From: a virus
Taxonomy: Duplodnaviria > Caudoviricetes
Reading direction: 5' to 3' (one strand)
IMG/VR virus record: IMGVR_UViG_3300016263_001265
Coordinates: 1-64,000 of that record
Length of the DNA stretch: 64,000 nucleotides
In this document: piece after piece, positions 1,139 through 45,200 of the stretch
How the letters are laid out: each line of letters opens with the position of its first letter
How positions within the stretch are numbered: position 1 is the first letter of the stretch
Made by a program: the position numbers and the translations under genes
Notes under the pieces: model-generated
The model's input: only the letters and a program-made list of their open reading frames with translations
Database searches by the model: none
Told to the model about the DNA's origin: nothing

Positions 1139-1401
1139 CTTGGCCTAGGGCGGGTTAGGGCGAGGACTTGACAGGGGTTGTTATTAGTGGTAGCCGAGCT
1201 CCCGCAGGAGCGAGGGTCGAACCACCGGTTAGTTAGGCTGTTCAGGTTAGTTAGGTTATTCGAGTTAGTTATATTATTAGTTCGGCCCCAGAGGACTGCG
1301 GCCCTCTGGGATAGAACCAGAAGCACCTACTTGACTCGCTGGTATCGGCTGCCTTACAATGGTCGGGCAGGGGCTTCCCTGTGAGTAGTAAGGAGGTCAT
1401 C

Positions 1402-2220
1402 ATGCCTAACTGGTGTGTGAACCAAGTGGACATACAGGGCGACGAGGCAGAGGTCGCACGATTGGTGGCGTTCGTCAAGGGCGACGACGAGAAGGACAAC
1501 GGAAACGATTTCTCGTTTGCCAAGATTGTTCCACCACCGAGGAGTGAAATCTATGGCGCGACAGATACGCAAAACGATTTCCAATGTGGTTGTAAGAAAG
1601 AGTGGATTACCACAAAGGAAGCCGTCGGCGAGCCGATGACCGAAGGGTTTGTGCCGCAGGAAGGCTACTGGGCGGTCAATGGCGTGAAGGTCGGAACCAA
1701 GATTCTTGCCAACGGCACGATTGAGGACAATGTTGCGATGATGTTCGGTGGCTCGGCGGTCTGCCCGATTCACGACCAGCCGCAGATTTCATCGCACCCA
1801 GATTGGTGGTACAACTGGAACTGCGCCAACTGGGGAACGAAGTGGAGCGCGGGAGATGTGTGGCACGACCGCTCTGACGACAGCAACGCTGTTGTTGAGG
1901 GAAAGACCTCGTACGGATTTGATACGGCGTGGTCTCCCGCGGAGCCTGTTGTTCTTGCTCTTTCGGCTCTCTTTCCGACGCTCCACATTACGCACCGATA
2001 CTGCGAAGGCGGTATGGGATACGCAGGTGAGGCGATGTATTTCGGTGGCGACGAGGTGTCGCGGCAGGAATACAACAGCGAGGGCGACAACCTCCCTGAC
2101 GAGGCGTGGCTGACCGATGAAAATGGCGAGCGTTCATACGAGCGGGACTACGACAAAGTGCCGATGACTCCGTTTGAGCGATTCTGCGATGAGCATTTCG
2201 GCGGAGTAGTTGGAGGCTGA
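1402..2220 (+). CDS. DUF1281/YubB-like ferredoxin-fold protein
   Basis: MPNWCxN N-terminus, WGTKW and FDTAWSP motifs; AAGGAGG SD before ATG 1402. Confidence 0.75.
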   Translation: MPNWCVNQVDIQGDEAEVARLVAFVKGDDEKDNGNDFSFAKIVPPPRSEIYGATDTQNDFQCGCKKEWITTKEAVGEPMTEGFVPQEGYWAVNGVKVGTKILANGTIEDNVAMMFGGSAVCPIHDQPQISSHPDWWYNWNCANWGTKWSAGDVWHDRSDDSNAVVEGKTSYGFDTAWSPAEPVVLALSALFPTLHITHRYCEGGMGYAGEAMYFGGDEVSRQEYNSEGDNLPDEAWLTDENGERSYERDYDKVPMTPFERFCDEHFGGVVGG

Positions 2221-2257
2221 TGTCATAGGGTAAAGGGACGCTACTCCCCTCTACCTG

Positions 2258-2291
2258 AATAATCCCCGTCGCGTTTGCGACGGGGATTATT
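2258..2291. terminator. bidirectional intrinsic terminator
   Basis: aataatccccgtcgc-gttt-gcgacggggattatt. Confidence 0.75.
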
Positions 2292-2410
2292 TATTATGTT
2301 CGCCCCCTCATGGCCGCCGCCATGAGGGATAGAACGCTTGACAGGTTGCTATGAGCCGTGAGATGATTCGGTTGTCGGGGCTTCCCGATGGGTAGCAAGA
2401 AGGAGGCAGT

Positions 2411-2965
2411 ATGCCGCTCAACTGGTATGTGGGGAACATCAAGAACGCGGACGATGTTTGTTGGATCACCGCAACACGCGACAGCGTGATGAACGGGCGT
2501 GTTCGCGGCGAGGAGTATCTCAATCCGATCACCGATCACTTCATCTGGGCGACGATGACGATCGGTCTGAACGAGATCACCGAGGAGAACATTGACGAGT
2601 GGGAGAAGCGACTCGCACTCGCCTATCAAATCGGTTGGTTGGACAAGATGGTCGTTTGGAACGGCAACGAGCCAGACGCAGACGGCAAGAACGCGCATTG
2701 CTTTGAGGCTCGCCCTCTCACTCGCGCAGACTTGGAGCGACACATCGGGCTTTCCACGAACGCCTCGTACGAGTCGGCGAGCGAGTGGCGCAAGCGCGTC
2801 GTTGAGCGACTGACGAAGGAAGGTCTGCGCGAGGCGAAGTACGACGAGAAGCGCAACGAGGAACTTGACGCGATCTGGCAGAAGGAGAGCATTGAGTTGC
2901 GCGACCGAATCCGACGCGGCGAGATCACGAAAGAACAAGCAGCAAAAGAGCCTGTGCCAGCGTAA
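2411..2965 (+). CDS. hypothetical protein
   Basis: ORF with SD and own promoter. Confidence 0.8.
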   Translation: MPLNWYVGNIKNADDVCWITATRDSVMNGRVRGEEYLNPITDHFIWATMTIGLNEITEENIDEWEKRLALAYQIGWLDKMVVWNGNEPDADGKNAHCFEARPLTRADLERHIGLSTNASYESASEWRKRVVERLTKEGLREAKYDEKRNEELDAIWQKESIELRDRIRRGEITKEQAAKEPVPA

Positions 2966-2986
2966 GTCTGGAAAGCAAATCGGAAT

Positions 2987-3016
2987 AAACAACCCGCCCT
3001 TCGGGGCGGGTTGTTT
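2987..3016. terminator. intrinsic terminator, UUCG loop
   Basis: aaacaacccgccc-ttcg-gggcgggttgttt. Confidence 0.8.
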
Positions 3017-3132
3017 ATTTTGTTCAGCCCCAAGAGACGGCGGTCTCTTGGGATAGAACCACTTGACAGGCTGCTAGGTTTGATGAGACAATCTGGTTGC
3101 CCCGACTTGGGGTGAGTAGAAAGGAGTGGCAA

Positions 3133-3582
3133 ATGGGGTACGACATCTTCTCGTTGCTGCCAGACCGAAAGGCAGCAGAGGCTCACGCAAAGAAGCACCG
3201 CTCAATGTGGATAAACGAGGACGGCTCGTATGATGAGAAGGCTCCTGAAACGCTGTATTTCAGGCTGAACATCTGGGGTATGCCGATGCTACGCGAGTTC
3301 CACGACTCCATCGGATTTGATTCAGTAAACGAAAACCTGATGGACAACAGCGGAAATGTAATCAAGGACTATGAGTGCCGAGAACTCGCGGAGAAAATCG
3401 CAGGGACGAGCGATGAGGCGATTCTGGAAATCATGACCGAGATTATCAGGGCAAATCCCTATAGCAGCGACAAGAGCAAGATTGACCCATCAGAGGAAGC
3501 GGGCTATTGGCTTGAGATTGTGAGGGAGTGGCAAGACTTCCTGTTTGGGTGCGCCGACCTGAAAGGCTGTGAAGTCCTATGA
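3133..3582 (+). CDS. hypothetical protein
   Basis: AAGGAG SD before ATG 3133. Confidence 0.75.
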   Translation: MGYDIFSLLPDRKAAEAHAKKHRSMWINEDGSYDEKAPETLYFRLNIWGMPMLREFHDSIGFDSVNENLMDNSGNVIKDYECRELAEKIAGTSDEAILEIMTEIIRANPYSSDKSKIDPSEEAGYWLEIVREWQDFLFGCADLKGCEVL

Positions 3583-3755
3583 AGAAGTGGGGCGTTCACT
3601 TGGAGATCGTCGGACATAAGTGGATTGAGGTAGAGGCAGATACCGCCGAACAGGCAAGAGAGATCGGTCTAGACATCGGAGTCAAAACGGACATCGGCGA
3701 GTTTACGGACAACACGGAAGTCGTCGTCGCCGATGTGGTGCTAGACGATGAGTAA
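3579..3755 (+). CDS. 58-aa DpnD/PcfM-like protein (not in ORF track)
   Basis: MKKWGVHLEIVGHKWIEVEADTAEQAREIG...; ATGA overlap with the upstream gene. Confidence 0.65.
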   Translation: MKKWGVHLEIVGHKWIEVEADTAEQAREIGLDIGVKTDIGEFTDNTEVVVADVVLDDE

Positions 3756-3945
3756 TCTGTTTCCGACCTCGCAACGGCAGTCCTGCGACTGCCCGACCGA
3801 CAGGCGCGACGCGCATTGGCTTTGGTCGGACTGCGAAGTCGCTGGGCACGAAGAGGGTTGTTATGTGGTCATGTGTAAGTCATGTGATCTCTGGTCGAGC
3901 GACTGCGACGAAGATTGGAAGCCGATCCCAGAAGATTGGAAATAG
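3748..3945 (+). CDS. small Cys-rich protein
   Basis: CxC and CxxC motifs, overlapping start. Confidence 0.55.
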   Translation: MSNLFPTSQRQSCDCPTDRRDAHWLWSDCEVAGHEEGCYVVMCKSCDLWSSDCDEDWKPIPEDWK

Positions 3946-4064
3946 TCGTTATTAGGTTATAGCCCGGAGAGCTGCGGCTCTTCGGGATAGAACCACTTGA
4001 CGGGTTGCTAGGTTTCTGCTTATGATGTGGTCAGCCCGATTGGGTGAAGTAGCAAGGAGGCGGT

Positions 4065-4277
4065 ATGGGCAAGGAATACAAGGTCATAGACTTCACATTT
4101 ACGGACGGGGGGTCGGTGTGCCTTCTCACGCCAGCGACACGGGACGCTCGGCGATGGCTGGCAGAGAACATCGGCGACGGCGCGATGTATCTGGGAGACT
4201 CGCTTGCGATTGAGCGTCGCTATGTTCAGGAGATTCTTGATGGTATTCGCGGCGACGGGTACGAGGTGGCTGTGTGA
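4065..4277 (+). CDS. hypothetical protein
   Basis: SD plus promoter. Confidence 0.75.
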   Translation: MGKEYKVIDFTFTDGGSVCLLTPATRDARRWLAENIGDGAMYLGDSLAIERRYVQEILDGIRGDGYEVAV

Positions 4278-4522
4278 GCGACCACTTTGAGATTCCCGTT
4301 GGAGACCCGCAGAACATCATCTTTACCTGCGACTGCGGCAAAGATGGTGAATACTGCTCCGACAATAACGCGAGCGGACATGCCGAGTGGTATTGCGCCG
4401 ACTGCGAAAACGATCGTTCGTTCAGGTACGGCTGTGCGATGTTCGTTGCCGAGGGTTGCGGCTGCGTTCCAGGCGGCGAGGACTGCGCCTGCGGTTGTGG
4501 CGGTACGGGGGTGATCAAATGA
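4274..4522 (+). CDS. Cys-rich microprotein
   Basis: About 11 Cys; GTGA and ATGA overlaps with neighbours. Confidence 0.6.
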   Translation: MSDHFEIPVGDPQNIIFTCDCGKDGEYCSDNNASGHAEWYCADCENDRSFRYGCAMFVAEGCGCVPGGEDCACGCGGTGVIK

Positions 4523-4845
4523 GCAGAAACGACGCTGCGTTCTTTACATACGATCACGGATCTATGCTCGTATGGCAGACGGAGGACAAGATGGTTCGCG
4601 TCTACAAAAACGGAGAAATGCGTATTCACTATGGCGACCGCGTTCTGCGATACACGGAAGACTTGGACGAAAACGGGTTTGATACCGATGAGAAACTTTC
4701 GCAGGCGACCAACGACGGGCTTCTTGATTGGTGGGAGAATCCGTGGTTTGAGGTTGTGTGGTCGGACAACGAAGACGGCGAGATCTTCCACGGATACGAA
4801 GAGGCTGTTGATTACGCAAAGAGGGTTCGCTCAGGCGACCTGTAA
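4519..4845 (+). CDS. hypothetical protein
   Basis: ATGA-coupled start at 4519. Confidence 0.7.
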   Translation: MSRNDAAFFTYDHGSMLVWQTEDKMVRVYKNGEMRIHYGDRVLRYTEDLDENGFDTDEKLSQATNDGLLDWWENPWFEVVWSDNEDGEIFHGYEEAVDYAKRVRSGDL

Positions 4846-4970
4846 TCTCGCTTATTATTGTTAGACCCCAAAGGGCGGCGGCCCTTTGGGCTAGAACTTG
4901 ACACAATCTTGGCGGGTATGAGACAATCTGCCTAGCGGCACTTGCCGTTGAGTAGTAAAGGAGGACGGAA

Positions 4971-5933
4971 ATGGCACACGAAATAGAAACGATGGCATAC
5001 AACAAGGAGCGCGGTATGCCGTGGCATGGACTCGGCGTTGCGAACGCTGGTCTCACCACGAGCGCGGAGATGATCGTCGCGGCTGGTCTTGATTGGAAGG
5101 TCAAGCAGCAGCCGATCTTCACCGACTACAACGGCGCGACCATCGCGATCAACGGCAAGCGCGCAAATGTGCGCGACACCGACGGCGCGGTTCTCGGTGT
5201 GGTGGGCGACCGCTACACACCGATCCAGAACGACGAGGTGATGTCGTTTGCGGACGCGCTGCTTGACGAAGGTGCGCGCTACGAGGCGGCGGGGTCGCTG
5301 CGTGGTGGGCAGATCGTCTTCACCGCGTTGGAGATCCCAGAGAAGATCGCGATCAAGGGCGACAACGGCGGCACGACGACCTACCTCGTCGTTGCCAACG
5401 GGCACAACGGGCTGTTTCCGCTCAAAGCGATGATCACCCCGATCCGCGTTGTTTGTATGAACACGCTGAACGCTGCTCTTGGCGGCGCGAAGATGTCGTT
5501 CACGCTCCGACACACGGCTCGCCTAGACGAGAAGGTGAAGGAGGCGAAGCGCGCTCTCGGCATCGCCTCAAAGGTGGTTGATGAGTTCTCGGAAGTCGCC
5601 TCTCGCATGGTTGCCGAGAAGGTGGAGCGAGATGAAGTCTTCCGCGTGATCACCACACTCTTCCCGCTCTCCCAGAAGGAGCGCGAAGACAAGGAAGTGC
5701 TTTCGGATCGCGCAAAGGCGACTCTCGCGATTCTCAACAACGCCGAGAACCTTGATGGTCTTCGGGATACGAAGTGGGGTTTGTATAACGCCATCGCGGA
5801 GTATCTTGATCACGGCGTTTCGTATCGCGGCGGCGTGCGCTCAACGGCAAACGACGCTCGCGCTTCTAGCGTGATGTTGGATACAGGCTTCGCTGCGAAG
5901 ACGAAGCGCGAGGCGATCGCGATTCTCGCGTAG
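4971..5933 (+). CDS. DUF932/DUF945-family phage/plasmid protein
   Basis: MAH...PWHGLG N-terminus, YTPIQN, GSLRGG, RVVCMNTL, HT and KWGLYNAIAEYLDH motifs. Confidence 0.85.
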   Translation: MAHEIETMAYNKERGMPWHGLGVANAGLTTSAEMIVAAGLDWKVKQQPIFTDYNGATIAINGKRANVRDTDGAVLGVVGDRYTPIQNDEVMSFADALLDEGARYEAAGSLRGGQIVFTALEIPEKIAIKGDNGGTTTYLVVANGHNGLFPLKAMITPIRVVCMNTLNAALGGAKMSFTLRHTARLDEKVKEAKRALGIASKVVDEFSEVASRMVAEKVERDEVFRVITTLFPLSQKEREDKEVLSDRAKATLAILNNAENLDGLRDTKWGLYNAIAEYLDHGVSYRGGVRSTANDARASSVMLDTGFAAKTKREAIAILA

Positions 5934-5952
5934 TCTCTGGTATCGCGTAAAT

Positions 5953-5982
5953 AAATAAGCCGCCCTTCGGGGCGGCTTATTT
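5953..5982. terminator. intrinsic terminator, identical to the copy at 6597-6626
   Basis: aaataagccgccc-ttcg-gggcggcttattt. Confidence 0.8.
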
Positions 5983-6096
5983 ATTATGTTCGGCCCCAAG
6001 GGGCCGCCGCCCCTTGGGATAGAACGCTTGACACGCTGCCAACCGAGGTAATACAATGATGAGGCTCCGCTTGGAGTAGAGTAGCAAGGAGGCGAA

Positions 6097-6588
6097 ATGA
6101 GTTGGAAGCGGTACAAGGTTGAGGTCGTAAGGCACGAGATTGCCGAGGCAAAGCCGTTCAGGATTGAGCGACCTACGGCGGCGGTGGATTTGTTCAGAGA
6201 GGACGCGAGCCGTCTGATGACTGAATCGCTTTGGGTGATGACGCTAGACGGACGCAACGGACTGATGGGCATTGAGCAGGTCTACTCTGGGACGGCAACA
6301 GGCACGAGCGTCCGAGTCGGTGAGTTGTTTAGGTACGCAGTCTCCTCTGGTGGTTGCGCCATCGTGTTGGTTCACAACCACCCAAGCGGAGACGCAACGC
6401 CGAGCGACGAGGACATTAGGCTTACGAGCGAAGTAATCGCAGCGTCCAAACTATTGGACATTGAGGTTCTTGACCATCTCGTTCTTGGCACAGGCGGCGT
6501 GTTTACGAGCATTAGGTCGCAGCGCACAAGTCTCTGGGACAGCAACAGCATAGTTGATGTGATTGAGGCTGTCGGCGCAACAAACTGA
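6097..6588 (+). CDS. RadC-like JAB-domain protein
   Basis: HNHPSGDATPSDEDIRLT and VLDHLVLG motifs. Confidence 0.9.
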   Translation: MSWKRYKVEVVRHEIAEAKPFRIERPTAAVDLFREDASRLMTESLWVMTLDGRNGLMGIEQVYSGTATGTSVRVGELFRYAVSSGGCAIVLVHNHPSGDATPSDEDIRLTSEVIAASKLLDIEVLDHLVLGTGGVFTSIRSQRTSLWDSNSIVDVIEAVGATN

Positions 6589-6596
6589 AACGAAGT

Positions 6597-6626
6597 AAAT
6601 AAGCCGCCCTTCGGGGCGGCTTATTT
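6597..6626. terminator. intrinsic terminator
   Basis: Same sequence as 5953-5982. Confidence 0.8.
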
Positions 6627-6742
6627 ATTATGTTCGCTCGCAAAGGGCGGCGGCCCTTTGCGGTAGAACGCTTGACGAGTCTGGGGAGATGGATTTACAA
6701 TGTGGACACCCTGCTTGGGGTGCTGTGAAAAAGGAGGCGACA

Positions 6743-7006
6743 ATGGGATTCCTGCGAGCGTCAATGACGATGTGTGGCAACGGCGATTGCTACTACGACC
6801 AATGCGAGTGCGAAACGCACGACCACCCGATGGTTCAGGAGTGCGATGGCGAAACGCATTTGAGTCTTGATAAGCGTTGTCCGTTTGAGGGCAAGGACAG
6901 GCGGGTCAAGTTTGGTTGGAACGGCTATGAACTCGCCTATGACGAGGTGATTTCGCTCTGCGACGACTGCTGGGACGCTGCGATGTCCGTTGCGAGTGAA
7001 TACTAA
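6743..7006 (+). CDS. Cys-rich hypothetical protein
   Basis: AAGGAGG SD before ATG 6743. Confidence 0.7.
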   Translation: MGFLRASMTMCGNGDCYYDQCECETHDHPMVQECDGETHLSLDKRCPFEGKDRRVKFGWNGYELAYDEVISLCDDCWDAAMSVASEY

Positions 7007-7199
7007 TGGACGCGCAGGGCGCGTTCTATTTGATGTTCGGTTCGCTGCTTCTCTGGGCGTACTTCCTCACGAGGAGGTAGTCCCTATTATTATGGGGTGG
7101 CGCAAGCAGCCGCCGCTGCTTGCGATAGAACGCTTGACGAGTCGGGTATACCTGTGGGAGAATACGCTTGTCGGAGAACCGACAGAAGGAGGCAAGACA

Positions 7200-7469
7200 A
7201 TGGACGCTACACCAATCGCGTGGCAGTACGAGGCTTCTGTTCATTGCGTAAAGTGCGCCGAGGGCAAGTGGGGTGCTGCGCTAAACGACGAAGGAACACT
7301 TGATAGCGAAGGCAACAATCTTCACCCCGTCTTTGACTGGGACGATGTGAATCTGTGCGGTGAGTCTTGCGGGACTTGCCTTGACTGGGCGATTGAGCCA
7401 GTACCGCACGAGCCAGCCAGTTGTCTGCTAGGATACGACTGCCGACTGCCACAGGCGGCGGCACTATGA
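7200..7469 (+). CDS. Cys-rich hypothetical protein
   Basis: SD before ATG 7200; CxxC motifs. Confidence 0.7.
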   Translation: MDATPIAWQYEASVHCVKCAEGKWGAALNDEGTLDSEGNNLHPVFDWDDVNLCGESCGTCLDWAIEPVPHEPASCLLGYDCRLPQAAAL

Positions 7470-7660
7470 CTACGGATAGGTAGAAGAGCCTCCACCTATC
7501 CATCACGAGCGGAGCAGTTGCGTCGCAGCCAACTGCTCCGCTTCTTATTGTTCAAGCCCAAAGAGCCGCAGCTCTTTGGGATAGAACGCTTGACGGGCGG
7601 CTCACAATGGGATTACAATGGGCGCAGCCCACTTGGGCGGGTAGCAGTAAGGAGGCTCAA

Positions 7661-7999
7661 ATGTTCTGGAAGGCTCTGGCAGTTTCGCTCACGAACGGCG
7701 ACTTTATCCGCGAAGGCGACGATTGGATTGTTGACCCAAAGCACAATGCGCGCCTTGACGGATTCGCCGAAAAGTTCTCTCAAATCTACAACGACACGCT
7801 GAACGGCTGGCATCACCCAGACGATTCTCTGGAAACCGAGCAGGACGGCGTGTACGACAAGTATGGAGTCGTAATCGTACATTGGCGCAACGACGGATTC
7901 ATTGACTTCGTTGCGTTTGACTCCGAAGATGGAGCGAAGCGCGAGTGGAGCGACATCGCCGATGTGTACGACCTAATGCCAAACGGCAAGACTTTCTGA
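7661..7999 (+). CDS. hypothetical protein
   Basis: SD before ATG 7661. Confidence 0.75.
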   Translation: MFWKALAVSLTNGDFIREGDDWIVDPKHNARLDGFAEKFSQIYNDTLNGWHHPDDSLETEQDGVYDKYGVVIVHWRNDGFIDFVAFDSEDGAKREWSDIADVYDLMPNGKTF

Positions 8000-8118
8000 A
8001 CATAATAAGTTCGGCTCCAAGAGGCGGCGGCCTCTTGGACTAGAACCCTTGACGGCTGGGTTCTGGTCGTTATAGAATCGGGTAGTGCCAAATGGCACAG
8101 GCATAGAAGGAGGCAGAA

Positions 8119-8409
8119 ATGGGAAAGGCAATCAAACTCGCAGAGGCAGCGGAGATGATTCGCAACAGCAACGGCGCAATCTTCGGGGTGGACTTCGTGA
8201 AGCGCACGACGGGCGAGGTTCGCAAGATGACGGCGCGGCTCGGAGTGAAGAAGCACCTGAAAGGCGGCGAGGCGGCGTATGACGCGGCGGCGAAGAATCT
8301 CATCTTCGTCTACGACATCGCGGCGAAGGGATACCGCACCATCGCGCTTGACGCAATCAAGGCGGTGCGATTCGGCGGCGAGCAGTATGAAGTTGAGGAG
8401 GCACGATGA
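8119..8409 (+). CDS. SH3-fold DUF2693/WYL-like protein
   Basis: FGVDFVKRTTGEVRKM...VYDIAAKGYRTI pattern. Confidence 0.6.
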   Translation: MGKAIKLAEAAEMIRNSNGAIFGVDFVKRTTGEVRKMTARLGVKKHLKGGEAAYDAAAKNLIFVYDIAAKGYRTIALDAIKAVRFGGEQYEVEEAR

Positions 8410-8642
8410 ACGGCGTTGCGAGCGTTGAGCCAGCGGTCTGGTATCAAATCCACACAAACGGAGCGACGACGACCTTCGCCCGATACTATCGGCAGGACGA
8501 TGGGCTTTATCGCTTCCAGAAACTCGCAGCCGACCACACGGCGGAGCCAACAGGATTCGCGGAAATCTTTGGCGACGAAGTGATGGAATCGCTTGGCGAG
8601 GTTTCGCTTCGTATGACTCGCGCAATCGTAAGCAAAGAATAA
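8406..8642 (+). CDS. hypothetical protein
   Basis: ATGA-coupled. Confidence 0.65.
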   Translation: MNGVASVEPAVWYQIHTNGATTTFARYYRQDDGLYRFQKLAADHTAEPTGFAEIFGDEVMESLGEVSLRMTRAIVSKE

Positions 8643-8765
8643 CGCTCATTATAGTTCAGCCCCAAGTGGCCGCCGCCACTTGGGATAGAACCACTTGACG
8701 GCTGGCTGAATAGTATGCGACAATCCGATAGACGGCGACTGCCGTTGTAGTAGCAAGGAGGCAAG

Positions 8766-9071
8766 ATGGCTGCGAACTTCGCAAAGACCGAGGAGTACCT
8801 TGAAAACGCAAAGGGTATCGCGTGGGATACCTGCCACAAGATTTATGTCCTGATGGACGACGAGCAGATGGCGCAGATGAAAGAATACGGGTATGACCCG
8901 CTTATCCCTGCAAGCGAACTCACGCCGAGCGAGATGCTTCACCAAGTTCGGTATTGGTACGCACAATCCTGCGGCTTGCGGTTCGTTCAAGCGGTTTACA
9001 CAAACCACAATAATCCGAACGACGGATTCGTTGCCCTGATTGAGCAGGGAGATGATTACGAGGAGGAGTAG
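8766..9071 (+). CDS. hypothetical protein
   Basis: SD plus promoter. Confidence 0.75.
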   Translation: MAANFAKTEEYLENAKGIAWDTCHKIYVLMDDEQMAQMKEYGYDPLIPASELTPSEMLHQVRYWYAQSCGLRFVQAVYTNHNNPNDGFVALIEQGDDYEEE

Positions 9072-9195
9072 GTAGTCCTCAAATAATAAGGGCGGGGAAA
9101 CCCGCCCTTATTATTGTTATAGCCCAACAAGCGGCGGCTTGTTGGGATGGAACCAAAGATGGGGGCTTGACAAGCGGCTTGGGATGCCTGATACT

Positions 9196-9428
9196 CCCTT
9201 TGTCGGGAGCGATCCTAGGAGCAGCAAACGACAGGGTGAGACTCGTGGACGAGCGAGCAGGTCAGCCGCAGCCCTAAATGCGGGATGACGAGAGGCAAAG
9301 GACGATGACCGCTAGGTGCCAATGGATCGGCGGAGCGGTAGGAAAAGGAGCCGAGGGAAGTGATTAGCCCTCGGTGAATAATCCGAAAGAAGCCCCTTGG
9401 AGCCGACGGGTTCCGAGGGGCTTCTTAT
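9196..9428 (+). ncRNA. candidate structured sRNA 1
   Basis: Promoter at 9167 and terminator at about 9389-9428; no convincing ORF; several helices. Confidence 0.55.
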
Positions 9429-9504
9429 TAGGTTCAGCTCCAAGCAGCCGCCGCTGCTTGGAATAGAACGCTTGACTTTCGCATTTGTCCGTGGGACAAT
9501 CGTT

Positions 9505-9748
9505 CCACGAGCCGCTCTGGTGCCGCTGTGAAGGTGGCGGGCTTATGGGGCTGCGGCTGGTTGGTAGTTGCAGACAAACTACTCGCGACGATAAGGACGA
9601 GCGGGGTGGGTGAATAACCAACACCTATGCCGCTTGCAAGAGGTAGCCGAGAGGTAGAGCCTCTCTCCGCAAGGGGATAAGCGTCAAGGCGGCGATACGC
9701 CGATGAGGGTCTGGTTGGTGTGGTGCCAGCCAGACCCTCATCATTTTG
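9505..9748 (+). ncRNA. candidate structured sRNA 2
   Basis: Promoter at 9472 and terminator at about 9703-9748; no long ORF; nested helices. Confidence 0.55.
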
Positions 9749-9856
9749 TTCGTCCTCAAAGGGCGGCGGCCCTTTGAGATAGAACGCTTGACGAGTTGCC
9801 AAGTGTTCGCGTAGTATTCAGGTGCGGGGACTTCCCGCGAAGCATAGGAGGCTCAG

Positions 9857-10177
9857 ATGGCAGACGGATACAACGGCTGGACGAACTGGGAAACTTGGGT
9901 GACGAATCTCTGGATTCAGGAGGGGCTGCTTGACCTCTTTGAGGCTGGCGAGCAGGCGCGCTACTTCGCCGAGCAGGACGAGGACACAGCCGCCTACGAG
10001 ATGGGCAAGTGGATTCGCGAGCAGGTTGAGGAGATTATCGGGGAGCAGCCCGCGGGACTTGTCGCGGACTTTGTCGGCGGCGCGCTCGGCTCGGTTGATT
10101 GGACGGAAATCGGCGAACACTTCACCGACGAAGCAATCCAGAACGAGCGCGAACAAACAGAGAACGCGGACGAATAG
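9857..10177 (+). CDS. conserved phage hypothetical protein (YNGWTNWETW motif)
   Basis: Motif recurrent in phage accessory proteins; SD plus promoter. Confidence 0.75.
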   Translation: MADGYNGWTNWETWVTNLWIQEGLLDLFEAGEQARYFAEQDEDTAAYEMGKWIREQVEEIIGEQPAGLVADFVGGALGSVDWTEIGEHFTDEAIQNEREQTENADE

Positions 10178-10297
10178 CGGCATAATAAAGTAAGACTCCA
10201 AGCACCCGCCGGTGCTTGGAATGGAACCCTTGTGCGTTCGTGGAAGTTCGTGTAGTATTGCCTAGCGGCGGTTGCCGTGAGTAGTAAGGAGGCTGAG

Positions 10298-10558
10298 ATG
10301 GCAGAGTATAAGGTTCGCGGGTGCGCCGTTCTGAGCAGCGGGAAGGTCTGGTCGGATACGATTCTGGTCAAGGGCAATGTGAGCCGCGACAATGCGCTCG
10401 GCAAGGCGCGCCGTATGTTGGAACTATGGAAGGGCGCGGACAATGTTCGCCGAACCGCATTCTGGTTCGCTGATGACCCTGATAGCGTTGCCGAAGGCGA
10501 GAGCAGCGCGCGCCTTATGCTCCGCGAGGCTGAGGCAAGGGGCGAGATTACCGCCTAG
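10298..10558 (+). CDS. hypothetical protein
   Basis: SD before ATG 10298. Confidence 0.7.
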   Translation: MAEYKVRGCAVLSSGKVWSDTILVKGNVSRDNALGKARRMLELWKGADNVRRTAFWFADDPDSVAEGESSARLMLREAEARGEITA

Positions 10559-10687
10559 CCTATCGGCTGCTTCATTAGTTCGGCTTGGAGCAGCCGCGGC
10601 TGCTCCAACTAGAACCTATTGACGGAATCCAAGACATCGCATAGTATTCGTTGTGCGGGGACTTCCCGCCAATAGCAGGGGGCTCAA

Positions 10688-10921
10688 ATGGCAGGAGAAA
10701 GATACACAAACGGCATTATGGAAGGTATGCTTTCTGGGCGCGTAAACTATGCGCTTGACGCAAGCCTAGACGCAAAGGGCGAGAAGCGAGAAGCCTACCT
10801 CAAGGCGGCGCAATACGCGCAAGCCGCTCTGTTCGCCTACGAGGTAAACGGAGATTCGGATGAGGTACGCCAACTCACGACACTTTCGTTTGATTGGATG
10901 GATAAAGCAAACGAAATCTAG
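10688..10921 (+). CDS. hypothetical helical protein
   Basis: SD plus promoter. Confidence 0.7.
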   Translation: MAGERYTNGIMEGMLSGRVNYALDASLDAKGEKREAYLKAAQYAQAALFAYEVNGDSDEVRQLTTLSFDWMDKANEI

Positions 10922-11045
10922 GGCATAAATAGTTCGGCTCCTATTGGCCGCCGCCAATAGGATTAGAACGCTTGACGGCTCGCGCTGTGTTGGCGTAGTA
11001 TTCAGGGGCGGGGACTTCCCGCGAGTAGTAAAAGGGGGCAAAAAA

Positions 11046-11474
11046 ATGGGGAAGGCAATCAAGTTTGCGGTGGGGCAGTTTCTAGACGGAACGCCAACAC
11101 CCGCGCTGTTCAATTGGATTGAGATCGTGGACTTCAACGATGACGGCAACACGCTCAAAGAGCTTTACCGAGTCGGCGAGTGGTACATGACCGAGGTCGC
11201 CGCTTCTGGTAAGTACGGTGCTACGAGTGTCGTGCTCTGGTGCGATGAGGAAGGGCTTTATCATCAGCCCGTCATTCGCAATCAGGCGGCAACTTCGCTG
11301 CGAAACGAAATCCTCGGCGGTCGCTTTGACGCTCTGTTTGGGAACTGCGTACTCACCGCAGAGGACGAGGACGGCAAGACGCTTGCGCTCACCGATGAGC
11401 AGGTTTCGGAAATCAAGACGCTGCTAGAACTTGGCGGGTATCCAATCATCACGGACAACTCAACCAAGAACTAG
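11046..11474 (+). CDS. DUF3846-like protein
   Basis: LWCDEEGL...N..AT...LFGNCVLT motif. Confidence 0.7.
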   Translation: MGKAIKFAVGQFLDGTPTPALFNWIEIVDFNDDGNTLKELYRVGEWYMTEVAASGKYGATSVVLWCDEEGLYHQPVIRNQAATSLRNEILGGRFDALFGNCVLTAEDEDGKTLALTDEQVSEIKTLLELGGYPIITDNSTKN

Positions 11475-11639
11475 GCGCGAAAGAGTCATAAACAGACAAG
11501 CGGGGCGATTGCCCCGCTTGTTTGTTTGTTCAGCTCCAATCTGCCGCGGCAGATTGGAATAGAACCCCTTGACGAATCCGAATCGGCGTGCCTACAATGG
11601 GCGTAGCCCGATTGGGCTGGCTGCGAATAAAGGGGGGCT

Positions 11640-11780
11640 ATGGTGGACGAGTTTCTTGAGTGCAAGTGCGTATGCGGTTGCGAGGCATACGCGGGCGAAT
11701 ACTCCTGGTGTGTGGACTGCCTGGAAGGTACGCACCAGAACAACAACAAACTAGACGATGGCGAACTAGGCAAAGAGTAG
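11640..11780 (+). CDS. 46-aa Cys-rich microprotein (not in ORF track)
   Basis: MVDEFLECKCVCGCEAYAGEYSWCVDC...; SD upstream. Confidence 0.55.
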   Translation: MVDEFLECKCVCGCEAYAGEYSWCVDCLEGTHQNNNKLDDGELGKE

Positions 11781-11794
11781 AAGGAGATAGAGAG

Positions 11795-11998
11795 ATGTGC
11801 GATTGGTGCAACGAGGTAATCGCTCCAGACGCTCCGAGGTGGATGGACGAACACGCGGGACTCTACTACCACGACTACTGCGGCGCGGAACTCCGAGCGG
11901 AGTTGCGAGCCGAGGCAGCCGCGCTGCTAGGCGACCGCGAGGCGTACGCCTACGAGGACGATTGGGACGGCTCTCAGTTTCTCTGGGATAGGAGATAA
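11795..11998 (+). CDS. small Zn-finger-like protein
   Basis: CDWC...HDYC motif; AAGGAG SD. Confidence 0.6.
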   Translation: MCDWCNEVIAPDAPRWMDEHAGLYYHDYCGAELRAELRAEAAALLGDREAYAYEDDWDGSQFLWDRR

Positions 11999-12193
11999 CA
12001 CAAGCACCGATGGCGGCGGGGAAACCCGCCGCCATTATCGTTATGCTGCAAGCGTCCGCCGACGCTTGCAATCGAACGTTAGTTATGTTGTTAGTTAGAT
12101 CAGGGAGTTGCGAGATCGAACTAGATTCGATGGAGAGATGAGATTGAACCACCCCGCCCGCCGCGCGTCCGCGGCGAGCGGGGTGTTCGTCTA

Positions 12194-39221: not shown

Positions 39222-42200
39222 CTATTTCCTGTTTTCCAGTTCTGCGATCTTTGATTCGGCCAAAGAAAGTCTTGCCCTTGCGTCCTTTAGCGAGGATATC
39301 AGCGCATATGCAATCTGATAGATGTCTATTCCGGCAATCGTATCTTTTGTTTTTGGCGTCATGGCAGAAGGAAGAACGGACGCAATCTCTTGCGCGATTA
39401 CGCCTATGGATACTCCCTCCTTTGAGGGGGTAAAGTACCCTTCTGACCTTACCTTTTCCAGATCCCACTCAAATGAGTATATGTTTATCTTGTCTATTGC
39501 CGAAGGGTCGATTTGATACAAAGATATGTTTTTCTTATAGTCTGCGTCAGAAAACGAGTTGCTTGTGCTCAATGTGCCCCTAATCAGCAGGCCGCCGGTT
39601 TCATTCAAGACCATGTTTTTTGTCAGCGATGACCCGTTCCACTCGCCAAATGTTACCGACTCTCCGCTCGGAACAGCAAAGTCACCCTCTGCACCAGAGG
39701 CGGAAACATACAGTGCTGGCGCCCCACTTGGGTTCAAGTTGACGTTTTGCATAACCGCATCAACGGCTGTTAGCGTACCTCCGTTGCTTACGTCAAAGTT
39801 GCCTCCTATTGACAAGGAACCGCCTGTAATCGTAATGTCAGATGCGGAAACCGCCCCAGCAGTGTCTACGGTGAATGCATCGTTGATGTTGATTGATCCG
39901 CCAGTAATAGAGCCACCTGTAACGTCAATATTTGCCGCCGTGACTGCACCTGAATTTGAAACCTGAAAATCACCGCTTCCAAAATTTATTCCGCCACCGG
40001 TTATTGTAATGTCACTCGCGGTTACCCTTCCGTCAAAGTCCACAGTGAAATTAGGGGAAGATATTGCAAGGTCGTCAACCTTGATTTCTACCGTTCCTGT
40101 GATTTGCGTCAAAGGAACAGAGCCGCTTGAGTTGCTTGTAAACCTGATGACTCTGCCGTTTGACACCGTACCGTTCGTGTCGGACTGCGGGGTGATGTCG
40201 CCAGCGGATAGATTAAACAGCCTTATAGTTCTTCCAGTTGTTGCCGATGCATACGGAGATATCGAGGTGAGTGAGACGGGCGTTGCCGCAGATGTCGCGT
40301 GCGTGTAGTTTATTGTCCTGTAGTTGTTGAACGAGCCACCGCTGGCAGATCCTGGCGTGACAAATGCGGCTGTCAGTCCTGATACAACCAGAGTCTTTCC
40401 GTTGTCAACTTTTGCCCCAGACAAAACCTGCGTATCAGACACTGGAACTAGTGCCACGGGCGAACCACCAGTTCCAGCAGATATTGGAAGTGTATAGGTT
40501 ACAGAACAGTAGTTTGTCGCGTACGCCGCAGTCGTTGTGGCAATGTTTATGTTTGAACCGGCAGCAAGATACACATAGAAGTTTTTCCCAGTGTCGGCAA
40601 TCCCAGACGCCGCTGTCAATGCAACGTTTGGCGTGTTTAGCGAGTATGTGAATGTGCTTGGATTGTTTCCAGAAGGAACGGTTGCAATAAACGATCCGCT
40701 GTACGGGACGGGCAGGCCGGTGATTTTCACCGTGTCGCCGCTCAATATACCATGCGCCATTGCCGTTGTTATTGTAACCACGTTGCTCGTGACTTGATAT
40801 GATATTATGCTTGCTCCGGTTCCAACAACCTTTTTCCCTCCGTTGTAGTCACTGGCGGCACCAGAAATAGAAACGTAGTCTCCGTTTTTAAATGCAACGG
40901 GGGTAGATGTAGAAAATATACCGTATCTTACCGGCGGAGTAGAGTCGTATACAGCGATTGCAAACGTGGCGACTGTATCTGATGGGGTATATGCCCATAC
41001 ACCTGGATCGTCTGATGTTGCTGTTGTCAGGGTTTTTGTTGCAAGTGCAATTGTTGCGTTTGTTCCGGAAGTGTTTGTTCCATGTTTGGAAAAACCAAGA
41101 AGTGAGTATCCTGCAGGTGGCGTTACCGAGGTGACGTTTACGTCGTCAATTGCAAGCCCGGTGAGGATGACTGCGTTCTGCGTTGATCCAGGAACAGTTA
41201 CAAGACCGGGATCAACAGTATTGCCAGTGTTGACATACGTAGAAAGAGCAATCGTTCTTCCGGAACCGCTAGACCTAAAGACCTGGGTTCTTGCGACTGT
41301 TGCGGTGCTTGTCCCGGTGACTACAAGGGTTGGAACCGTTACGCCCGATTGAACAGTGTAAGAAAACAGAGAAACAGAAGGATCTGATCCACCTGTATTT
41401 GATCCAACCTTTACCCACCCAACGCTTGTCGTTGCGTGCTGTGTTCCAGTGCTTTCGTCAGATGCAACCGCGCAAACAATGAGGTCTCCAACCTTGAGAT
41501 CTGCTGCCGCTGGAGGCGTAACCTGCACAGATGTCGTACCAGTTGCCTGAGTTGTCAAACCGGAAACCACGCTTATTGACGGAGGAACAGAAGAAATATT
41601 GAAAGCTTGCGTCCTTATGATTGGAGAGTCTGTCCTTGTTGCGGTAAAAACCCCGTCATACGGAGACCCAAGGCCAGAAACCACTATCGTCTCGTTTGCC
41701 GATATTCCGTGATACCTTGAAGTTCTTATCGTGGCAACGTTTGATACTCGGGAATAGTCTTCGACCGCAGATCCAAAGTCATGCGCTGTCCTGGTGCCAT
41801 TTATTCCGGCAGTTCCTGTTGCAAGGATTTCAACGGAGTCTCCAGAGACAACCGAATGGGGAGTCGTAGAAACAAGAGTTGCGTACGTGTCTTGTCCTTG
41901 CGTCGGGACAAGGTCTGTGCCGAGGGCAGTCGGTACTCCCTGCGCCTTGAGCGCAGTGGCGTTCAATATGCTTCCTATGGACGTGGCTGTCGTGTTGGCG
42001 TCTGTGTCTGCACCCGTTATTGTTACCGAGTTTCCAGAGTCAAAGGCGTGCCAGTTGAGCGTTCTTACCGACACGGCTGATCCCCACTTGGTTTTGTGGG
42101 TAACGTCTTCGTCGGTGTGCTCAGCCGGAACGTCGGTCAGATTCATCGACGTATCTATTCCAGTTATCGTCACAAGCTGACCAGGAGATATTGCGTGTTC

Positions 42201-45200
42201 CTGGTTAAGCGATATTGCTCCTGTGGTACCGTTTTTTGCCTTTCTTGAGGTTGGAACGCTTAGTTCAGATATCGTTCTCGCCCCGTCAAATCCAGTCCCG
42301 GCTCCAGCGATGTTGATGGTAAGCCCTGTCTCTGTAACACCATGTTCTCTTAGCGTCCAAACAGTCGCGTTGCTTCCGGATCTGTACTTGTAATAAAGGG
42401 TTCTTGTTCCAAGCGTTTCACCCCACCTGTTGTCTATGGTAATTTTCCCAGCCTTGAGTACCGATGCGTCTATTCCCGCAGCAGAAATAAGTCCCGTTGT
42501 GATAGAGCCAACAACAACGTCTGAGGTGTTGATTGCGTTTTCCCAGGTCGTTCCCCCAACGGCAACCTTCCGCAGGCCAGGCGGCGTTCCGCCAAGGTGA
42601 TACACGATCATTCCCTCTGGATATCTTGCCCTTAGCGCAGCACTGTTTGCTATGTCTGGCAAATCGCTTCCAGATATGATTTGAAGCGGTCTGAGGCTTG
42701 ATTCAAGTTTATCAATTGTTATAGATCCGTCTCCAATGTCAATTTGCGTTGCGTTGGGGGTTGTTGGATTTGTCGGATCTGAGTATTTACTGAATGTTCC
42801 ATCTGTTGATATGGCCCTTACCCTATATCGATACTGAAGAGCCGTTATCAAGCCAGTGTCGTTTGCATACGTTGCATTTGTGTTTTGAATTGTTCTAAAG
42901 TCGTTGAAGTTGTAGTAGGCATATCCGTCTACGTCTACGCTGTCTATTGTTCCGCTTTCCAGGCAAACGTATTCAAAGCTGTTTGTGTACGTTTGTGAAA
43001 CTACCCACTGGCCGTTTAAGGATAAAATGCTTTCGTCTTCTGAGTCTATCTCTATTCTAACTGTGTCATTTGCAACCATTCCGTGTGGAGTCTCTGTTTC
43101 AACCGTAACAGTTGATCCCGAGCGAGAAACGGTAGCTATTTCCTTGAATATTGCGTCTTGCCTTTGAAGCTCAAACGAAGAAAGGTTTTTGTTTATTTCA
43201 ACATCTTGATCAAATCTCCAGGAAAGAGATATCATTTTTTCGTTTGCGGAAACGGTCACATCCGTTGGTGTGTCCGGAACTGGCGGAACTGGATTTACAT
43301 CGTCAAGCTCTTTTATCTTTTCGCTCAGGCGTATAAACGCGCTTCTCTGAAGGCGGATGTCGCCGCCGACCGTGATCGTATAGACGACATCCATTCCCAT
43401 CATTCTCGCCTGCACCGACTTGACAATAAGCGGCTTGGCAACGCCAACAAGCGTCCACAGGAAAGGTATTACCTGGCCAACTTCAGGTACAGGGTAGGTT
43501 GAGCCAGATGCGCTTGATGGGCGCATCTCAAAGGTATACGATTCGATCGGCAAGCCGTTTTCTTTCCAGAAACCTTCTGCGGCAAGTTCTGCATCCTCAA
43601 GGGTTTCTACCCTTTCGTCGGTGATTGCCGCCTCAACTATCTTCCCGTTTGTTGCCCATATTCCTGGAACAAAGTCGTAGTCGACATACTGTACTGGATT
43701 TCCGCTGCCGTCTGTCAGCGCGACCTTGTTTCCGTTTTCGTCTTTTGTCCTGAAAACGGCGTACAGATGAAGCCTGTTTACCGATGCGCCAGACTCTACC
43801 GGGCTGCTTGGAACTTCCATCTCGTAAACTGGGACAGCGTATGAAACAGAGTCCTCAAAGTCGCCATATGCCATTTGGCCAGTAATTTCTATTGCACTCC
43901 AGTCGGTAAACGATGCAGATCCGTGTTGCTGGGTCGTGCATGTCCCCCTCAGGCCAAATGAAACAGCATTGGCAGGAACTTCAACAATCTTCCAGATTCT
44001 TTCCCAAGAATGAACCGATTCTCCAGTGAGGTTTCCTATATGAGTTGAACTTATCTCTGCCCCGGCAGAGTTGTACCAATCAACATATGCGCCCCATCTA
44101 TTTTGATGATCTGATACATGCCCCCTGACGGAAACAAAATACTTTTTCCCAACAGATGTAGGGACTCTTTTGTCTGTTGATGTCTCTATTGACGTGTTGG
44201 ACGTGCTTGATAGAACCGTGTATCCGTGGCCGTATGGGCCGCTTGTTGACGATTGCAACGAAAACCCAGAGGCGGTTGTCCACCCGTCGATGTTTCCATC
44301 GTACATCCCGTTGAACACAAGCTCTTTCGGAGTCTTTGCTCGATAGTGCAGTTTGCAAGAGTAGTTACCAGACCCGTCTAGCTGCCCCCTGTCTACCCAG
44401 TATTCTGCACCTGTTTTTTCTGATATGTAGTCAAGAACGTTCCTAACAGTTCTTCCTCCGTACTGCTCGGCATTTGCAGTATCGCTCTCTGGAAGATACG
44501 GGCTAAATCGATACTGCGTGTCTACTGCCTCAACTGCTGACGTAACGTCTAGCCCTATCTGGGAAAGCCAGGTTTTTTCAAAAAGACCGCCAAACACGGA
44601 AACCGGATATAGCCAACTTCTGATGTTGTCTTTTCCAACGCCAAGCCTGTAGTAGCCGCTGTCAAACCAGTTTCCGGAAAGAGTTTGCGTGCTGGCTGGA
44701 GTTGAGGCTGGCGAGGTCAGTTTGTACATTTCGCCGTCCGCGTATCCACGGGGTGATCCGTAGTAGATATCCTCTGGTGATTGCGTGGTCGAGTACGAGG
44801 ATATATATGCTGCGCCGCCAGACGATAGAATTGCGTTTGTTATTGAGGCGGCACCGTCTTCACCGTTGTTTTTGTATGTGATCCTGTTTTGCGCTGGAAC
44901 GCTGTTGATAACCACATAATCTTCAATCGCAACGGAAAATCCTGGAGTCTGAGGAATGCTAACAACAATCGGGTCTCCAACCGAAAGGCCGTGAGAAGAC
45001 TCTGTTTGAATTGTTACTATGTTTGAAGATCTTGATGCCGATGTTATCTTGATCGAAGAAAGAAGCGCCCTCGACTCTCTTGCCAGATAACTTTCGCTTG
45101 AAGACCCACTTCCGGCAGTTTTTACTATATAAATCCTGTGCCTATTTGCGTTTCCTGCGGTTTTCCACTTTACCTTGATGCTTTGAGTTGAGGTCCCGGC

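Follow-up and report, generated by a model that had tools for sequence, protein, structure and literature searches.

The second of two neighboring 316-bp cassettes in this phage genome (cassette 2) very probably is a real and conserved gene for a structured RNA. The RNA belongs to a family that is absent from Rfam 15 and for which no published description was found, and it is housed in a cassette resembling the PeSL (promoter-early stem-loop) cassettes of T4-type phages. A novel structured RNA carried as a cassette had been proposed in a preliminary description of the DNA, and this claim is strongly supported by homologues, by covariation, and by the lack of an Rfam match. The best explanation overall, which we favor with moderate confidence, is an independent noncoding RNA gene whose folded product would act in trans as an early RNA.

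The cassette and its transcript

The window, meaning the whole 64,000-nt stretch of DNA that was analyzed, covers positions 1 to 64,000 of a virus record that is 84.6 kb long and has direct terminal repeats. Its plus strand carries, from ~1.3 to 12 kb, small genes that each lie behind a 38-bp element and then TTGAC. A script located 18 of these hairpin elements (1280 to 12040), with TTGAC after each. They have the layout 4+3+10+4+10+3+4, that is, GTTC, 3 nt, a 10-bp arm, a 4-nt loop, a 10-bp arm, 3 nt, and GAAC. Elements begin at 9116, 9432, and 9748, and therefore the two 316-bp units reported in the preliminary description are genuine. It had also called the interiors of cassettes 1 and 2 unrelated, and indeed they share only short chance matches; R1, the covariance model of the RNA, has a single match in the genome. 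The features of cassette 2 are the following.

9432 to 9469, plus strand: 38-bp hairpin element opening the cassette (GTTC-AGC-10-bp arm-CGCC-10-bp arm-ATA-GAAC)
9472 to 9500, plus strand: sigma-70-like promoter found by consensus scan (TTGACT, 17-nt spacer, GACAAT with TG extension)
9507 to 9747, plus strand: predicted primary transcript of the structured RNA gene, ~241 nt, from the promoter and terminator positions, the fold, and R1
9510 to 9558, plus strand: P1 domain, outer helix 9510-9515/9553-9558
9544 to 9612, plus strand: ORF of 22 amino acids with an ATG start, inside an insertion missing from most family members
9558 to 9562, plus strand: J1/2, UGGUU (UAGUU in other members), nearly invariant
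9563 to 9583, plus strand: P2 hairpin, family-conserved pairs 9563-9567/9579-9583
9587 to 9596, plus strand: P3 5′ arm GACG (9587 to 9590), then AUAAGG; GACGAUAAG is invariant
9596 to 9637, plus strand: P3a proximal helix, 9598-9604/9630-9636 plus G9596:C9637
9606 to 9628, plus strand: P3a distal helix, 9606-9612/9622-9628, apical loop 9613 to 9621 with AACCA at 9616 to 9620
9639 to 9664, plus strand: P3b, outer helix 9639-9644/9659-9664, inner pairs 9647-9648/9653-9654, GNRA loop GAGA at 9649 to 9652
9665 to 9676, plus strand: P3c hairpin CUCC-GCAA-GGGG, helix 9665-9668/9673-9676
9675 to 9686, plus strand: invariant GGAUAAG-CGUC-A, junction strand plus P3 3′ arm (9682 to 9685)
9688 to 9701, plus strand: P4 hairpin, 9688-9691/9698-9701, with a conserved RCGANA loop (GCGAUA at 9692 to 9697)
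9702 to 9750, plus strand: P5 hairpin, 19 pairs (9702 to 9742), apical loop GUGGU (9720 to 9724), then AUUUUGUU

Transcription is predicted to start near A9507, and both RNA ends are predictions from the promoter and the terminator. In relatives, consensus promoters (TTGACA-17-TATAAT) end 5 to 6 nt before the conserved 5′ UCCG, for which the window has ACGAG. At the other end, the 19 pairs of P5 (9702 to 9742) are followed by ATTTTGTT; besides being an intrinsic terminator, P5 probably belongs to the RNA fold. The U tract and the GTTC of the following element overlap, as do the GTTC of the element at 9432 to 9469 and the U tract of the terminator before it. In one subgroup (L130, L156, L131, L122, L148, and L114), tandem heptamer arrays (GGTTATG or AGTTACG, ~8 to 10 copies) lie directly after the RNA terminator; these are absent from the window and look like iterons or protein-binding arrays.

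The preliminary description had suggested that the equal length of the two cassettes might reflect a size constraint, and this idea is rejected. Homologues of cassette 2 measure 317, 289, 318, 317, and 318 bp and those of cassette 1 measure 314 and 317 bp. Two protein cassettes, one of 487 bp and then one of 437 or 440 bp, separate the two in L008 and L009, and in L098 and L159 the cassette neighbors differ again. Because the lengths of homologues vary and the two cassettes are not adjacent in L008 and L009, the match of 316 bp with 316 bp is chance.

Cassette 1 (9116 to 9431) has its own promoter (9167 to 9195) and its own terminator, is unrelated to cassette 2, and gave no match to R1. It is conserved with ~80% identity in three relatives, including L008 (positions 1759 to 2072) and L009 (1780 to 2096), and its central block, GGTGAGACTC...GGACGATGACCGCTAGGTGCCAATGGATCGGCGGAGCGG, is near-identical. 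A perfect 12-nt complementarity exists between 9263 to 9274 in cassette 1 (CAGCCGCAGCCC) and 9547 to 9558 in cassette 2 (GGGCUGCGGCUG). Only 9 nt of it are left in L008, and L009 and L088 do not have it at all; pairing between the two cassette RNAs is therefore probably chance. Several protein cassettes share a 5′-untranslated-region hairpin, GCGGGGACTTCCCGC, at 9825 to 9840, 10655 to 10670, and 11008 to 11023, positioned between the −10 box and the ribosome-binding site.

The cassette format recalls the PeSL cassettes of T4-type phages, for which cassette shuffling has been described (PMC2839356, PMC4122927). In both, a repeated stem-loop and an early promoter bracket each small early gene, the terminator and the promoter form one composite motif, and the order of cassettes differs between close relatives, which is modular shuffling. 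Here, the stem-loop lies upstream of a sigma-70-type promoter and is repeated before small genes (18 elements), and cassettes 1 and 2, adjacent in the window, are two cassettes apart in L008 and L009. There are also differences: the present phage is an unrelated ~85-kb freshwater phage, the motif is a 38-bp element with 10-bp covarying arms, and the cargo of cassette 2 is an RNA gene, not a protein gene. The resemblance is thus one of function and format. PeSL membership is not claimed because the portal is at most ~25% identical to those of named phages, the best being Bacillus phages such as B4.

Structure of the RNA

Covariation in the aligned sequences gives good support to a fold made up of P1, P2, a four-way junction (P3, P3a, P3b, and P3c) with two GNRA loops, P4, and P5. 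The alignment, A5, contains 42 rows, of which 41 are distinct cores and one is the truncated variant L129. In A5, which was fitted to the model and is hence biased toward structure, 93.6% of the cells form standard pairs compared to 30 to 45% for slid controls, and the covariation score was reached by none of 500 shuffles. The preliminary description had named a lack of covariation as one result that would speak against its proposal; covariation is present, with compensatory (two-sided) changes in 28 of 37 pairs. The same helices were obtained from a plain MAFFT alignment with RNAalifold, and the minimum-free-energy fold of the window plus strand alone reproduces the comparative structure. When compared to shuffles, the plus strand has a z score of −6.1 with the terminator and −2.3 without it, and the minus strand, at −0.2, is no better than chance. 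The conserved G-U pairs also fit the plus strand only; for instance, P3c has a U-G pair in 38 of the 42 sequences.

Good examples of covarying helices are P2, which is 100% paired with compensatory changes in four of five pairs, and P3b, which is 97% paired with compensatory changes in five of six outer pairs. Besides J1/2 and the loops of P2 and P4, the 43 invariant columns concentrate in the strands of the junction. No variation is seen in GACG-AUAAG ... GGAUAAG-CGUCA, both long strands of the four-way junction reading AUAAG, and the surrounding helices covary freely. The last G of AUAAGG varies, being A in two members. P1 is a plain 5-bp helix with a 7-nt loop in other members, and in the window subgroup it encloses two extra hairpins (9521 to 9539 and 9540 to 9552) found only there. 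In this expanded P1 (9510 to 9558), the ancestral P1 plus J1/2 region seems to have been partially duplicated in a nested manner, with GGUGCCGC..UGGCGGGCUUAUGG nested within GAGCCGC..GCGGCUGGUUGG.

The secondary structure drawn in the preliminary description stood in part. Its GCAA tetraloop hairpin is P3c (9665 to 9676), and its terminator with a U tail and one G-U pair is the hairpin at 9702 to 9742. Its three other helices failed. For gccgcttg/caaggcggc, 52.5% of cells pair in the family as a whole, which is no better than slid controls; the gccgcttg arm is the 3′ arm of P3a and pairs instead with CGAGCGG, all eight of the eight pairs covarying. The helix cgctc/gagcg is not conserved and combines the other P3a arm with a 5′ extension missing from most members. 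The third, gagagg/cctctc, is a wrong register of P3b, in which the conserved partner of GCCUCU is AGAGGU at 9639 to 9644.

Two of the hairpin loops may contact each other. The apical loop of P3a has 7 nt (CUAACCA) in most members and is closed by covarying pairs, and GUGGU is retained in the apical loop of P5 even where the stems differ considerably in sequence. Complementarity between these loops is kept across four classes through in-register double changes: AACCA:UGGUU in most members (ACCA:UGGU in the window, 9617 to 9620 with 9721 to 9724), AACUA:UAGUU in the group of L091, L107, and L095, AAUC:GAUU in the L065 group, and UGAC:GUCA in the L090 group. The pattern, seen in 3 to 4 lineages, is suggestive of a kissing interaction between the P3a and P5 loops. 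It is graded no higher because the controls are only moderate: depending on the class, shuffled P5 loops match equally well in 0.2 to 50% of trials, and some cross-class pairings are equally long. In addition, covariation cannot separate an intramolecular from an intermolecular contact; a kissing loop of the ROOL RNA, first read as tertiary, later proved to be quaternary (PMC12286853). A pseudoknot between J1/2 and the P3a loop was also considered. Here, 84% of the cells pair, yet 243 of 500 shuffles reach this value, and it is a candidate only.

Occurrence among freshwater phages

The RNA family is confined to a group of ~80-kb uncultured freshwater phages, with one copy per genome. When loci fetched via a neighboring protein were searched by BLAST, L007 and L008 showed a copy with 91% identity, and L065, L066, and L053 only a short 45-nt core. 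The loci found in this way share GACGATAAGG ... CGAGAG ... CGCAAGGGGATAAGCGTCA, with intervening segments that differ and stay complementary. More loci were added by two IMG/VR pattern scans and one JGI metagenome scan. The covariance model R1, built from 15 sequences with the window's subgroup excluded, finds the window RNA at 9517 to 9705 with 105 bits. In IMG/VR and lake metagenomes, R1 gave 63 matches with 41 distinct cores, and eight more came from a third pattern, making 71 matches. The third pattern omits the 3′ motif, and all eight added matches nonetheless carry GGGAUAAGCGUCA. The first scan used the 3′ motif only, and GACGAUAAG was present in 15 of the 15 real members whose 5′ region lay in the fetched DNA. 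Both large-collection patterns included the 5′ motif GACGATAAG, and divergent members and any cellular relatives may therefore be missed.

With R1, the genome to which the window belongs and five relatives of 78 to 85 kb that are 90 to 100% complete yielded a single copy apiece. No copy was found in five other phages of 55 to 83 kb that share the neighboring YNGWTNWE protein family, using a search that recovered the RNA in five of five known carriers. Among 185,579 prokaryote species genomes, the junction pattern occurred in four places. We take these to be chance matches, with R1 scores of 17 to 19 bits for two and no R1 match for the other two, compared to at least 93 bits for full-length members. 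The window DNA had no match among 50,697 phage records. At the gathering threshold, none of the 4227 models of Rfam 15 matched the window or 11 carrier loci, and in E-value mode only terminator-like chance matches appeared, all far below threshold. The outcome of this Infernal search, a check suggested in the preliminary description, is in line with a novel RNA, and the literature likewise yielded no description of it.

The RNA core is 58 to 66% identical to that of the window in the distant members compared, and the family spans phages whose proteins have diverged to ~30% identity. For example, the L065 core is 64% identical, whereas a nearby protein is only 29% identical. The RNA sits among small early-type genes, and its neighbors vary by phage, one gene family lying upstream in L091 and downstream in L065. 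An ORF near the RNA in L065 (positions 2938 to 3402) contains HNHPSGDSQASDED, which we take, by eye, to resemble the RadC/JAB (MPN+) metalloprotease motif. L129 is a variant with a minimal P3a that has no CUAACCA loop. Its first 17 positions, at the start of a metagenome contig, are GTTTCCCAGTCACGATA, presumably a random-amplification primer, and the 5′ end of L129 would for this reason be an artifact. The minus strand of the window carries two giant ORFs, at 45879 to 56303 (3474 amino acids) and 39222 to 45878 (2218 amino acids). The former had raised the suspicion of an N4-like phage. This was rejected; PHROGs gave a weak tape-measure-like match (residues ~1731 to 1835) and no signature of an N4-type virion RNA polymerase.

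How the RNA might act

On the reading we favor, host RNA polymerase would start at the sigma-70-like promoter directly behind the 38-bp element, make the ~241-nt RNA, and stop at the intrinsic terminator P5. The RNA would then act in trans, early in infection, as a compact folded molecule. Its invariant junction would bind a protein or a small ligand, the RNA serving as a scaffold, sponge, or decoy, and the mode of action would not be simple antisense pairing. Action in trans through binding of a protein or ligand is plausible though tentative. It is possible too, if somewhat more speculative, that this is a new class of tertiary-folded functional RNA and not an ordinary regulatory small RNA. 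Its junction could form a ligand-binding or catalytic core, or P3a-P5 kissing loops between molecules could build rings or cages, as pRNA, ROOL, and GOLLD do. If the ligand-core reading is true, the RNA might be, for example, a sponge for a host signaling molecule.

Several known RNAs share some of these traits. The phi29 pRNA is also a phage-encoded structured RNA of similar size with an early promoter. It has two complementary, covarying hairpin loops; for those of the cassette-2 RNA, which keep their complementarity in four classes, the controls are weak. The pRNA loops are AACC and GGUU, the same letters as in AACCA:UGGUU here. However, pRNA has a helix formed by its 5′ and 3′ ends and a three-way junction, whereas the cassette-2 RNA has a four-way junction and no such helix, its 5′ end being in P1 and its 3′ end in P5, unpaired with each other. 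There was no match to the pRNA model (RF00044), and a packaging role is not indicated. GOLLD, ROOL, and raiA resemble the cassette-2 RNA in being conserved, elaborate, phage-associated RNAs without an assigned function that were found by covariation, and some of the kissing loops that covary in them proved to be contacts between molecules (PMC12286853). They are 500 to 800 nt long compared to a ~165-nt core and 220 to 250 nt in total here. The cassette-2 RNA matches none of their models and has no adjoining tRNA genes, ARAGORN having found neither tRNA nor tmRNA genes in the window.

An invariant junction amid covarying helices, immediately downstream of a promoter, is likewise seen in riboswitch aptamers and in the HK022 put RNA. 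The RNA could accordingly be a cis-acting leader, either an aptamer or a put-like processive antiterminator that gates passage through P5. Such a role seems unlikely to us, even though invariant junction nucleotides with covarying helices are typical of aptamers and the RNA begins right at the promoter. In the window and in most members, a new promoter comes directly after a strong terminator, and the next gene is therefore independent of read-through. The exceptions are three subgroups (L065, L091, and L090) whose P5 lacks the U tract; L065 also has a gene with a ribosome-binding site within the next ~30 nt. In such members the RNA could be a 5′ leader, in keeping with action in cis. A riboswitch couples its aptamer to an expression platform that controls the downstream gene; here, no such platform is conserved, the terminator shares no positions with the junction helices, and the downstream genes vary between phages. 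Nor was any conserved pairing found that would compete with P5, the sole candidate being an unconserved helix from the preliminary description, and the P5 loop seemingly belongs to the fold. A base-pairing small RNA, with the single-stranded P5 loop GUGGU or UAGUUGG of J1/2 as the seed against mRNAs of the host or phage and the remainder as a scaffold, would need far fewer than the ~40 invariant positions present in the multihelix junction, and its candidate seeds have their complement in another loop of the RNA itself. We regard it as quite unlikely, despite the stand-alone transcript, whose terminator hairpin and U tail resemble those of many Hfq-type small RNAs, and despite loop sequences that are conserved over very different P5 stems.

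The compact invariant core, the GNRA loops, and the possible loop-loop clamp would also be compatible with a self-cleaving or otherwise catalytic RNA having the four-way junction as its active site. Some members have no obvious promoter before the conserved 5′ end, which therefore could arise by processing. In most members, however, the promoter sets the transcription start exactly at this end, so that cleavage is unnecessary, and no Rfam ribozyme family matches; a ribozyme is thus highly improbable. The last alternative, that there is no functional RNA and the cassette is a decayed protein cassette, a small protein gene, or a DNA-level element, is the one we give hardly any credence. It draws on the format of cassette 2, which is the same as that of the neighboring protein cassettes, and on the ORFs in the window. 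The preliminary description allowed only the 22-amino-acid ORF, which has an ATG start; with GTG or TTG starts there are longer ones, of 42 to 44 amino acids on the plus strand and 122 amino acids in the antisense direction. None of these is conserved, and no frame of cassette 2 is open family-wide. The frame of the antisense 122-amino-acid ORF has one to three stops in ~90%-identical relatives, and the gaps between L009 and the window (31, 2, 1, 1, and 5 nt) are not multiples of three. The compensatory changes and the G-U pairs that fit the plus strand only mean selection on an RNA fold, and the family spans phages with ~30%-identical proteins. The covariation and the ORF comparison thus already contradict a cassette without a functional RNA.

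Few structured RNAs are known to be encoded by phages, and for most of these no function has been assigned. The cassette-2 RNA has a ~165-nt core that is small enough for probing, crystallography, and cryo-electron microscopy, a sharply defined invariant part, and helices already mapped by over 40 natural variants. It also means that promoter-hairpin cassettes, known for small early protein genes, can carry RNA genes as well. If the junction binds a host factor or signaling molecule, this would be a new RNA-based means of host takeover or counter-defense in abundant freshwater phages.
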